Source: Candidatus Heimdallarchaeota archaeon (lineage in GTDB: Archaea > Asgardarchaeota > Heimdallarchaeia > Heimdallarchaeales > Kariarchaeaceae). Taken from it: 23,144 bases of DNA. Positions 18,136 to 20,171 of the stretch are shown here, in pieces. The first letter of the stretch is position 1; each line of letters opens with the position of its first letter. The stretch spans positions 1 to 23,144 of the forward strand of contig WAKA01000049.1 in assembly GCA_015523565.1 (NCBI GenBank). The letters are read 5' to 3'. The position numbers and the translations under genes were made by a program. Under the pieces are notes generated by a model that ran no database searches, was not told where the DNA came from, and saw only the letters and a program-made list of their open reading frames with translations.

Positions 18136-19164
18136 TTAAACAATTATTGAATGGCATTTTGGGCATACAATATCTTTAGCCGCATAATTGGGATCAGGAT
18201 TTCTCAATTGACCATTTCGCATAGAAATGTCCTGCCCTTCCATTATTTCATAGGCTATCATCTTCAATTCATCGATTGAATAAACATCCAAAACTGTTCG
18301 CGGACCAACGTATGAACACTTGATTGATGCCAAGGCATGTCCAAATTGCATTGCCTCAATAATTCTTTTCTTGCTTTGTAACCCTCTCTCCCCAATATGA
18401 TAAAGAAAACCAGCAGTTGTCCAGTCTCCAGCTCCTGCAGCATCAACAAACGATTCCACATGGTATGCTGCAATCCTCTCAGGATCACCATTTATCCAAA
18501 TCATGCTCCCATTCTCACCTTCAGTCCGAATGACCACTGGAATATCTAATGGAGGGGAAATCCATTTTGTGCGTTTTGACAAGGAATATTTTAGGATGTC
18601 AACATAATTGTGCATTTCTGGAAATTTTTCAAGCAAAGAAAGGTTTTGAGGCTCGAAAACAATTGTGGCATTATAGTCTCGCTTCATTCGCATGACTAAT
18701 TCCAACAAACCTCTAGAAAGTCTATCCAAATAAAAATACAGAGACCCACCATAAGGCAACTCGACAAATTTGGTTAGCCCTTCATCTAAAACATTTCGTA
18801 TCATTTGATCTGTAAGTAACCTAGAAGTGCCAAATTTAAATTTGCAGTTGGAACAATTGAGGAGAAAAGAATGGGAGTTACTTGTTTGTAATTGTTCCAC
18901 TATTATCGGAGTGCTTGTGGAATCTATGAAGATAAAATCAGTGGGAACTGATTGCTTTAAAAGTTCTTTAAGAATGTGTCTACCTGCTTCGTCATTTCCA
19001 ATTCTTGCCAAGGGAATAGTTTGCCAGCCAAAGTTGGAGAGAATCATCAGGACATTTCCGCAAGACCCACCTAAAGAAACATGAGGAAAATCCTCAACAG
19101 GTTTTATTAAATCCAAACAAATGAGACCAGTGCCGAATATTTGAGGTCTCGTCATCACTTTCAT
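18136..19164 (-). CDS. PfkB/ribokinase-family kinase with two CxxC motifs
   Basis: G.GLICLD, GGSCGNV, ARIGND..G, ILKYS, T.GENG and the DAAGAGD anion hole; extra CSNC and C-terminal CPKC. Confidence 0.9.
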   Translation of the reverse strand: MKVMTRPQIFGTGLICLDLIKPVEDFPHVSLGGSCGNVLMILSNFGWQTIPLARIGNDEAGRHILKELLKQSVPTDFIFIDSTSTPIIVEQLQTSNSHSFLLNCSNCKFKFGTSRLLTDQMIRNVLDEGLTKFVELPYGGSLYFYLDRLSRGLLELVMRMKRDYNATIVFEPQNLSLLEKFPEMHNYVDILKYSLSKRTKWISPPLDIPVVIRTEGENGSMIWINGDPERIAAYHVESFVDAAGAGDWTTAGFLYHIGERGLQSKKRIIEAMQFGHALASIKCSYVGPRTVLDVYSIDELKMIAYEIMEGQDISMRNGQLRNPDPNYAAKDIVCPKCHSIIV

Positions 19165-19196
19165 TTCTTTTTCTTCAAATTAGAATATTGTTTTAC

Positions 19197-20069
19197 CTAT
19201 GTGAAAACTTTTTCCCAATCAGTTTCTTTATAAGATTTCTTGGCTAGTGAAACAAAATCGTTACAACTTTGCCATTTTCCCACCACATTTTTTATTGGAT
19301 TTCCAGGATCCACAATAACAAGTCCAAATTTGTTTGCTGGTGGAAATGGAATTTGGGAATTTAAAAGTCTATGCGTACCAATGAAAGATTTGTTGGATAA
19401 CCAACCCAAAAAATCACGGAACCAGTAAGGATAAGTTGGAAGTTTGTTTCGATAAGTTTTCATGTGCAAAAGCACCAAAAGCTCCAAACCAAAAGACGGA
19501 GGCAATTGGGAATAGGATAAATTTCCCTTGTTTTTAGCTAACCAATACTTTGCAATCATGATACGATCCCTTGCAGAAGCATGAAAACTGTTCAACAGTT
19601 GTTTATGAAATTTCCCATTTGACACTTGATAAAACTTATTGCCATTCATAACTTGGTTTGCTACCATTTCAGGAGTTGAAGCGGTTAAGCCGATCAATAC
19701 ATCAATTTTCCGCCCTTTTCGCTTAAGCCTAATTGCAAAATCTAGAATTTCGGTTTTTTCATTAGGAAAAGCATTTGAAAGAGATTTATGTACTTTGTCT
19801 CTTGCCTTTTCATATTCAATCTTGTTAGGCTTTTTGTTGAGAAAAAAAACAATGTCAATTTCTTGGCGACCTTTAATCATTGTTCTACGACCGAAAGAAC
19901 CACCAACAAATGTTTCCGAAATTGGCAATCCAAGATTACTGCGTCCGATATTCGATATTCTATTCACGTCAGATTTAAGAACCTTAATCTCATGTTTTGT
20001 TGGGCGTATTTCTTTTTCAAGTAATTGCTGAAACCATTTATTCATTGGAACAATTTGGGTTCCATCCAT
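19197..20069 (-). CDS. OAS-like / CD-NTase (SMODS-like) Pol-beta nucleotidyltransferase
   Basis: FVGGSFGRRTMI....EIDIVFF, third acidic residue in KIDVL, and C-terminal AKYW, LPPSFGLELL and VIVDPGNP..NV. Start uncertain: TTG 20084, ATG 20069 or ATG 20045. Confidence 0.85.
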   Translation of the reverse strand: MDGTQIVPMNKWFQQLLEKEIRPTKHEIKVLKSDVNRISNIGRSNLGLPISETFVGGSFGRRTMIKGRQEIDIVFFLNKKPNKIEYEKARDKVHKSLSNAFPNEKTEILDFAIRLKRKGRKIDVLIGLTASTPEMVANQVMNGNKFYQVSNGKFHKQLLNSFHASARDRIMIAKYWLAKNKGNLSYSQLPPSFGLELLVLLHMKTYRNKLPTYPYWFRDFLGWLSNKSFIGTHRLLNSQIPFPPANKFGLVIVDPGNPIKNVVGKWQSCNDFVSLAKKSYKETDWEKVFT

Positions 20070-20171
20070 TTTGAAGGTTTTCAAAAACCATTGATTTTAA
20101 ATTGCATAAGCTGAAAAATAACCCCTCAAATAACAACTTAATAAAGCTAAATTGCATACTGAATATGAAAG

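Follow-up and report, generated by a model that had tools for sequence, protein, structure and literature searches.

Comparison with described systems

Clade C CD-NTases (cGAS/DncV-like nucleotidyltransferases) of type III cyclic oligonucleotide-based antiphage signalling systems (CBASS) and the eukaryotic oligoadenylate synthetases (OAS) are the described enzymes most similar to a nucleotidyltransferase (NTase) that is encoded, next to a PfkB-family kinase, on a 23,144-nucleotide stretch of DNA from Candidatus Heimdallarchaeota archaeon (contig WAKA01000049.1; the whole stretch analysed is hereafter called the window). The pair is probably not a new two-gene system: a CD-NTase without an effector would here adjoin a kinase that is detached from its cassette, within a mosaic defence island.

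CdnC from E. coli MS115-1 (PDB code: 6p80), of type III CBASS, has the same full-length two-lobed fold as the window NTase (Foldseek E 3e-12), the same size and the same catalytic triad, and the CBASS_cyclase_a/b models are the best prokaryotic profile matches. In CBASS terms the window enzyme supplies the CD-NTase core, as judged from SMODS, PADLOC and the CdnC fold. However, its identity to CdnC is 16–17% only, it falls outside the CdnC clade, and no HORMA, TRIP13 or effector gene adjoins it. With regard to the eukaryotic enzymes OAS1/2/3 (PDB codes: 4rwn, 9h1z), OAS2 is the best PDB sequence match (E 2e-6). The motifs GGS-x-G..T, the K-x-W helix, LPP-x-(Y/F)-x-LELL and C-terminal DP-x-x-P are shared, as are the OAS1_C domain and the fold, but the window NTase branches outside the OAS clade. 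In published trees OAS is nested among the bacterial enzymes of clade C (PMC10732462), which agrees with the grade placement of the window enzyme.

The kinase finds its counterparts in a five-gene cassette whose function is putative and whose parts have been catalogued (PRTase-CE as PF24390, the ORC-CDC6-like protein as PF24389 and CARF6 as PADLOC PDLC01910). It shares both CxxC motifs, H98, C283 and the DAAGAGDW sequence with the cassette kinases, but it is without the four partners and sits on a long branch. Other PfkB kinases, namely fructokinase (5eyn), ribokinase (1rkd) and nucleoside kinase (3b1q), have the fold, the anion-hole motif and the catalytic aspartate D247 in common with it. 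Identity to these is 15–21%, however, and the window kinase has extra CxxC pairs and scores far under every NCBIfam equivalog cut-off.

Distribution of the pair

Members of the two-CxxC kinase family were compared at 85 loci, which are spread over many phyla of bacteria and archaea, with plasmids and one viral contig among them, and which include kin that are not independent of one another; for the genome collection, the best 80 of 202 loci were read. An adjacent NTase was found at none of the 85. Only one NTase (at L073) lies within the fetched kinase flanks; it is a CBASS gene of CdnC-like type that stands apart, at a distance of 3.8 kb and on the opposite strand. From the other side, the gene contexts of 10 of the 12 best NTase homologues and of the Asgard matches were read, and a search of these loci with the kinase profile returned no PfkB gene beside an NTase relative. 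The pair was not found elsewhere in 400 Asgard genomes, where the only other kinase of the family (in G081) is inside a full cassette. Keyword searches of the literature gave no paper on either the NTase–PfkB pair or the five-gene cassette, which is not proof that there is none.

Because the two genes normally belong to different gene sets and the pair has been found nowhere else, the arrangement is best explained as a chance neighbourhood. The NTase and the kinase would be separately mobile conflict-type genes that were brought together in a mosaic defence island. By analogy with OAS1 and CdnC, the NTase would most likely use Mg2+ and ATP, upon an infection cue, to synthesize a short oligoadenylate-type product, either cyclic or 2'-5'-linked; its linked receptor would have been lost or never present here. 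The kinase probably performs ATP-dependent phosphorylation of a sugar, sugar-phosphate or nucleoside, as is presumed for the cassette. The two would be co-transcribed by read-through and functionally independent. Read in this most likely way, the pair is an ordinary outcome of the shuffling of genes within a defence island and does not amount to a new system.

A first-pass annotation of this DNA had put the pair forward as a candidate two-gene defence system and had named conservation of the pairing in other genomes as one of the points on which the proposal would turn. The description of two co-oriented genes 32 nt apart was confirmed, and so were the intact catalytic triad of the NTase and the intact DAAGAGD of the kinase. 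Scans with Pfam, PADLOC and NCBIfam agreed that the neighbouring genes include no CBASS effector (transmembrane, patatin, SAVED, NucC or TIR) and that the window holds no ancillary gene of CBASS types II–IV (E2-E1/JAB, HORMA/TRIP13 or QueC/TGT). The proposal of a system was not borne out: the neighbourhood survey, whose reach is limited by the lack of close relatives of either gene, found no second case of the pairing.

The kinase and its home cassette

The kinase is matched by Pfam PfkB (67 bits, E 2e-18), and structure comparison assigns it the ribokinase/fructokinase fold. The N-terminal GGxxxN signature and the C-terminal DxxGAGD anion hole are present, the latter as DAAGAGDW at residues 241–248 with catalytic D247, and the CxxC motifs are at residues 104–107 and 334–337. 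Twenty-eight homologues in the database, with 27–36% identity, share both CxxC motifs and several invariant residues, and a family profile built without the window kinase matches it at E 3e-72.

Elsewhere the family occupies the last position of a cassette in the order SIS-HAD (a HAD gene with an N-terminal NagB-II/SIS-like part), PRTase-CE, ORC/CDC6-like ATPase, CARF6 and PfkB. CARF6 is immediately upstream of PfkB in 81 of the 82 loci with readable upstream DNA, and the complete five-gene cassette is present in 64 of 65 loci that are long enough. At the window locus the four partners are absent, and six-frame profile searches of the host genome gave nothing convincing; this genome, from a hydrothermal-vent member of the Heimdallarchaeia, is 90% complete in 233 contigs, and absences from it mean 'not found'. 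The kinase is detached here from its five-gene cassette.

All catalytic residues are retained in the window kinase, which keeps 59 of 85 family-conserved columns, the joint lowest among 86 members (median 91%). The losses include the neighbourhood of the lid zinc finger (P105, G108, L111, P112) and the C-terminal GARGxMY motif. An equally divergent member, P0028, remains in a full cassette, and divergence alone is therefore no proof of a new job. In the kinase tree the window protein pairs with P0028 through long branches, and no conclusion on ancestry was drawn from it. A missing acidic residue after KYS was considered as a sign of decay and rejected, as 13 other family members are without it. 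A catalytically intact kinase outside such a rigid cassette offers a natural single-gene handle on the cassette's substrate. Another family member outside the cassette (L049:3-1863) follows a xylose-isomerase/sugar-epimerase-like TIM barrel gene (Pfam AP_endonuc_2, E 2e-23).

Fold and relationships of the nucleotidyltransferase

The NTase carries the motifs GGS (residues 61–63), E75-I-D77, D128 and K179, with E75, D77 and D128 making up the triad; D77, D128, G62, S63 and K179 are invariant or nearly so among its relatives. Both Pfam SMODS (30.9 bits, cut-off 26.5) and OAS1_C (23.4 bits, cut-off 19.9, over residues 152–204 only) are above threshold. PADLOC cyclase models match at E 4e-13, and the NCBIfam CBASS cyclase model scores 47 bits, below its cut-off of 200. 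In the AlphaFold model (pLDDT 91) the top structural matches are tied between porcine OAS1 (Z 22.7, rmsd 3.6 with 279 residues aligned) and E. coli CdnC (Z 22.6, rmsd 3.7 with 270 aligned), and poly(A) polymerases and terminal uridylyltransferases (TUTases) follow near behind. A structure search of the Atlas returned the same mixture of OAS, CdnC and polymerases.

Homologues are few. A full HMMER search of 1.84 billion representatives gave 57 matches, the best with 40%, 35% and 31% identity, and was needed to see them, as a word-indexed search returned no match beyond the NTase itself. Metagenome scans found no relative in A3 and five loci in A4. Searches of viral contigs, plasmids and phages found no relative, and an orthologue was not found in three congeners.

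A maximum likelihood phylogeny of 40 sequences (LG+G4) groups the window NTase with its three best homologues in a four-member clade of their own (support 100/99). This clade is apart from classic CdnC (92/86), eukaryotic OAS (96/98) and class I CCA enzymes (100/100), and the branching order among these groups is poorly supported. The OAS group comprises 12 rows, the named members being animal OAS and an amoebozoan protein. The NTase belongs to a separate small lineage that is part of neither classic CdnC nor eukaryotic OAS. Approximately unbiased (AU) tests reject no pairing (window with OAS, p 0.47; CdnC with OAS, p 0.09; window with CdnC, p 0.09) and are compatible with the lineage as a possible prokaryotic sister of eukaryotic OAS. 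Being intact and OAS-like in appearance, and coming from the class of Asgard archaea nearest to eukaryotes, the enzyme is a useful sequence for trees of OAS origin. The host genome also encodes a eukaryote-like actin (E 1e-136).

The likeness to polymerases raises the question of whether the NTase is an RNA-end enzyme, active in CCA addition, tailing or repair. The fold is common to class I CCA enzymes, poly(A) polymerases and TUTases (Z 18–21), some relatives have been automatically named CCA-adding enzymes, and a class I CCA enzyme was not found in the host genome. Nevertheless we regard this as very improbable. The protein has 295 residues against 430–520 and is without the CCA body and tail; its match to TIGR03671 is limited to positions 7–93 of 410, with 25 bits against a cut-off of 281; and a 100/100 branch separates it from the class I CCA enzymes. 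Furthermore, a class II-type enzyme (PF01743) is present in the host and in 10 of 11 other family members, and the lack of an NTase orthologue in the congeners also speaks against such a role. A CCA-adding function was rejected on profile coverage, the tree branch and the presence of the class II-type enzyme, in keeping with the first-pass annotation, which had not taken the NTase for a tRNA-end enzyme.

The class II-type gene of the host is at G000:C140:33329-33721 (L187), and PF01743 is found in 11 of the 12 family genomes (G000-G011). No class I CCA enzyme was found in the 12 family genomes searched, and the sister family has both class I and class II. The class II-type pattern has been described for Heimdallarchaeia (bioRxiv 10.64898/2026.05.29.728689). 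Separately, a second, unrelated SMODS-type NTase of 273 aa stands alone in the host genome (G000:C39:8382-8825; L109:7011-7832). In congener G001 its neighbours are unchanged, relatives also occur in G002 and G006, and the gene is conserved in the lineage.

Neighbours of the NTase relatives

The closest NTase homologue (L085, 40% identity) has an NYN/LOTUS nuclease gene 50 nt downstream (Pfam NYN, E 5e-29), an arrangement seen once, on a 1.9-kb contig (L085:92-1941). No linked gene is present for the second and third closest homologues, with about 200 nt of downstream sequence visible for one of them. At L086, L087 and L145 the NTase has either no neighbour or an opposite-strand gene beside it. 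A relative in the same order (L105, in G022) is accompanied by E2-E1, and another (L143) is beside an ATPase and HNH pair.

A HEPN-like gene lies directly upstream of NTase relatives at L089:21-971, L106:6448-7410 (G006), L115:8590-9519 (G026), L142:5454-6401, L144:2543-3481 and L148:3024-3971, and a shorter form of it is found at L149:62-730. The HEPN-like partner has 310–325 aa and a weak C-terminal DUF4145/HEPN-like match, in which the His of the RxxxxH motif is kept and the Arg is missing. With at least six loci, two of them Asgard, the pair of OAS-like NTase and HEPN-like gene is a better undescribed two-gene candidate than the NTase and PfkB.

These contexts bear on a specific form of the chance-neighbour explanation, in which the NTase either remains as the cyclase of a CBASS-like or NTase/HEPN-like operon after deletion of its partner, or signals in trans to an effector encoded elsewhere, the kinase being in both cases a bystander. 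It is consistent with the E2-E1 (G022) and HEPN-like (G006, G026) partners of relatives from the same order, and with the reported enrichment of CBASS in Asgard archaea (PMC12988326). Against this, no homologue of a SAVED, NYN/LOTUS or HEPN-like partner was found in the host genome with the few queries tried, and two of the three closest clade members are also without a linked effector, so that the solo state is perhaps normal for the clade. We consider this form of the explanation improbable.

Several further arrangements were observed. Tandem or nearby SMODS-like NTases of 250–290 aa occur in other Asgard families (L125, L130/L139, L136 and L123/L141, in G232, G225, G139 and G134), usually near a gene of 370–400 aa with an N-terminal HNH-like Cys motif. 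A CBASS-like Asgard operon at L121 has a confirmed SAVED-domain gene, cyclase and E2-E1, and at L122 and L140 the layout matches in gene size only (L121, L122 and L140 are in G142, G185 and G193). A cyclase with E2-E1 was also confirmed at L105, likewise a CBASS-like Asgard operon. At L152:4579-9083, a distant NTase relative is about 2.7 kb upstream of a viperin-like gene, which was recognized by eye from its CxxxCxxC radical-SAM motif.

Layout of the pair and the case for coupling

Both genes are intact and co-oriented (Table 1). The length given for the NTase is counted from a TTG start, the database call being an ATG at 20069 (290 aa). A sequence scan found no terminator-like site in the intergenic gap, and the two genes are probably read through as a single transcript. 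The gap itself is ordinary, since 41% of co-oriented neighbours in this genome are at most 40 nt apart. The likeness of the two genes in codon usage and in third-position G+C content (GC3) looked suggestive at first but is not distinctive against genome-wide pairs, 41% of random gene pairs being equally alike in GC3. A scan for sigma-70 promoters was at chance level, with a consensus that is ill-suited to an archaeon. The predicted complex of the two proteins scored 0.00 against a mark of 0.32, which counts neither for nor against the pairing.

In two vent samples, both from a single study, contigs span the NTase–PfkB junction, and one of these may be where the window itself comes from. An assembly chimera at the junction is ruled out by these bridging contigs, in which both genes are free of variants. 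For two contigs of run X2, the match is confined to the 5' part of the NTase gene (window 19767–19923), after which they continue into unrelated sequence; they have loose ends at 19767 and 19805 and a raised depth of 14.8. They possibly come from a different organism with a related gene, or from a variant that has been rearranged.

The arrangement could conceivably reflect a coupled two-enzyme module, in which the recruited kinase would phosphorylate a sugar or nucleoside that is then adenylylated by the NTase, or in which the NTase product would activate the kinase. In an effector form of this idea, the product-activated kinase would drain ATP or a metabolite in the effector's place. Co-orientation, the short gap and the lack of a terminator-like site between the genes are consistent with coupling. 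Both active sites are intact despite the long branches, the kinase has lost surface motifs of its family while keeping the catalytic core, and both genes are jointly missing from the restriction-modification (R-M) locus of congener G001.

Some of the same observations weigh against a chance neighbourhood. Every catalytic residue of the kinase is kept despite its joint-top divergence, a pattern better explained by long selection outside the cassette than by recent decay. The kinase occupies the position of the NYN nuclease in the closest NTase homologue, a slot that is held by E2-E1 in another relative. The kinase lineage of L049 has also left the cassette, and re-use therefore does happen. Finally, the collections contain no close relative of the NTase (best 40%) or of the kinase (best about 35%), so that a module confined to this lineage could not appear twice and the recurrence test is limited.

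Set against coupling are the single occurrence, the equally divergent P0028 that is still in a full cassette, the lack of compositional support (the likeness in GC3 being ordinary), and the fact that the locus has no nearby receptor for a new messenger and the kinase no added sensor domain. We therefore think a coupled module unlikely, and likewise unlikely that the locus embodies a messenger or effector chemistry without match in the literature searched. If it were true, it would amount to kinase-linked nucleotide signalling, for which those searches found no precedent.

The surrounding island

Table 1. Features of the pair and of the adjoining genes (window positions).
Feature	Position	Strand	Basis
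Gene 1: CD-NTase/OAS-grade Pol-beta nucleotidyltransferase, 295 aa	19197-20084	-	Pfam, PADLOC, AlphaFold, tree
Gene 2: PfkB/ribokinase-fold kinase, two-CxxC family, 342 aa	18136-19164	-	Pfam, homologues, family profile
Intergenic gap, 32 nt, A/T-rich, NTase stop to PfkB start	19165-19196	-	Sequence
Type II DNA methyltransferase, SPPY motif, divergent from NTase (context only)	20172-21566	+	N6_N4_Mtase, MTase_II
426-aa open reading frame (ORF) convergent on methylase, putative restriction endonuclease, unconfirmed (context only)	21535-22815	-	
AlkD-like DNA alkylation repair gene (context)	17234-17824	-	Pfam DNA_alkylation E 4e-26

The first-pass annotation had located the pair between a CRISPR-Cas locus and an R-M pair. 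The defence-island setting stands; direct adjacency to CRISPR-Cas does not, as that locus is more than 4 kb away and a 1047-aa beta-helix protein and the AlkD-like gene intervene. Likewise, only the methylase of the presumed R-M pair could be identified (Pfam N6_N4_Mtase; PADLOC MTase_II, E 5e-29), and the supposed restriction gene, the 426-aa ORF, has no family match in Pfam, PADLOC or NCBIfam.

In congener G001 the methylase and the 426-aa ORF are found together beside a housekeeping gene, with 74% DNA identity over both. Neither the NTase nor PfkB is present at that locus, and similarity stops about 40 nt before the NTase start. The site of the NTase and PfkB varies between congeners and lies among R-M and CRISPR genes. 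Inclusion of the R-M pair in a unit with the two genes was rejected, since G001 has the one without the other. The AlkD-like gene, 311 nt downstream of PfkB, has a GC3 of 0.52 versus 0.30 for PfkB; it is probably a separate unit, and its inclusion was rejected on base composition.

The 1047-aa beta-helix/Ig-like protein (window 13843–16986, plus strand) is closely paralogous to a protein encoded on contig C90 (69% DNA identity), and G001 also encodes a homologue. The cas operon encodes a Cas_TM1802 large subunit and Cas3 and is followed by a degenerate inverted mini-array, identified from repeat matches (window 13490–13730). The CRISPR array (1–710) continues beyond the left edge of the window. 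Between the array and the cas operon are ORFs of 502 and 566 aa (window 1398–4618, minus strand), which have faint helix-turn-helix matches only and no match in PADLOC or NCBIfam. At the opposite end (window 23030–23144), the contig terminates in a tandem repeat (about 40 nt), the probable cause of the break in the assembly.

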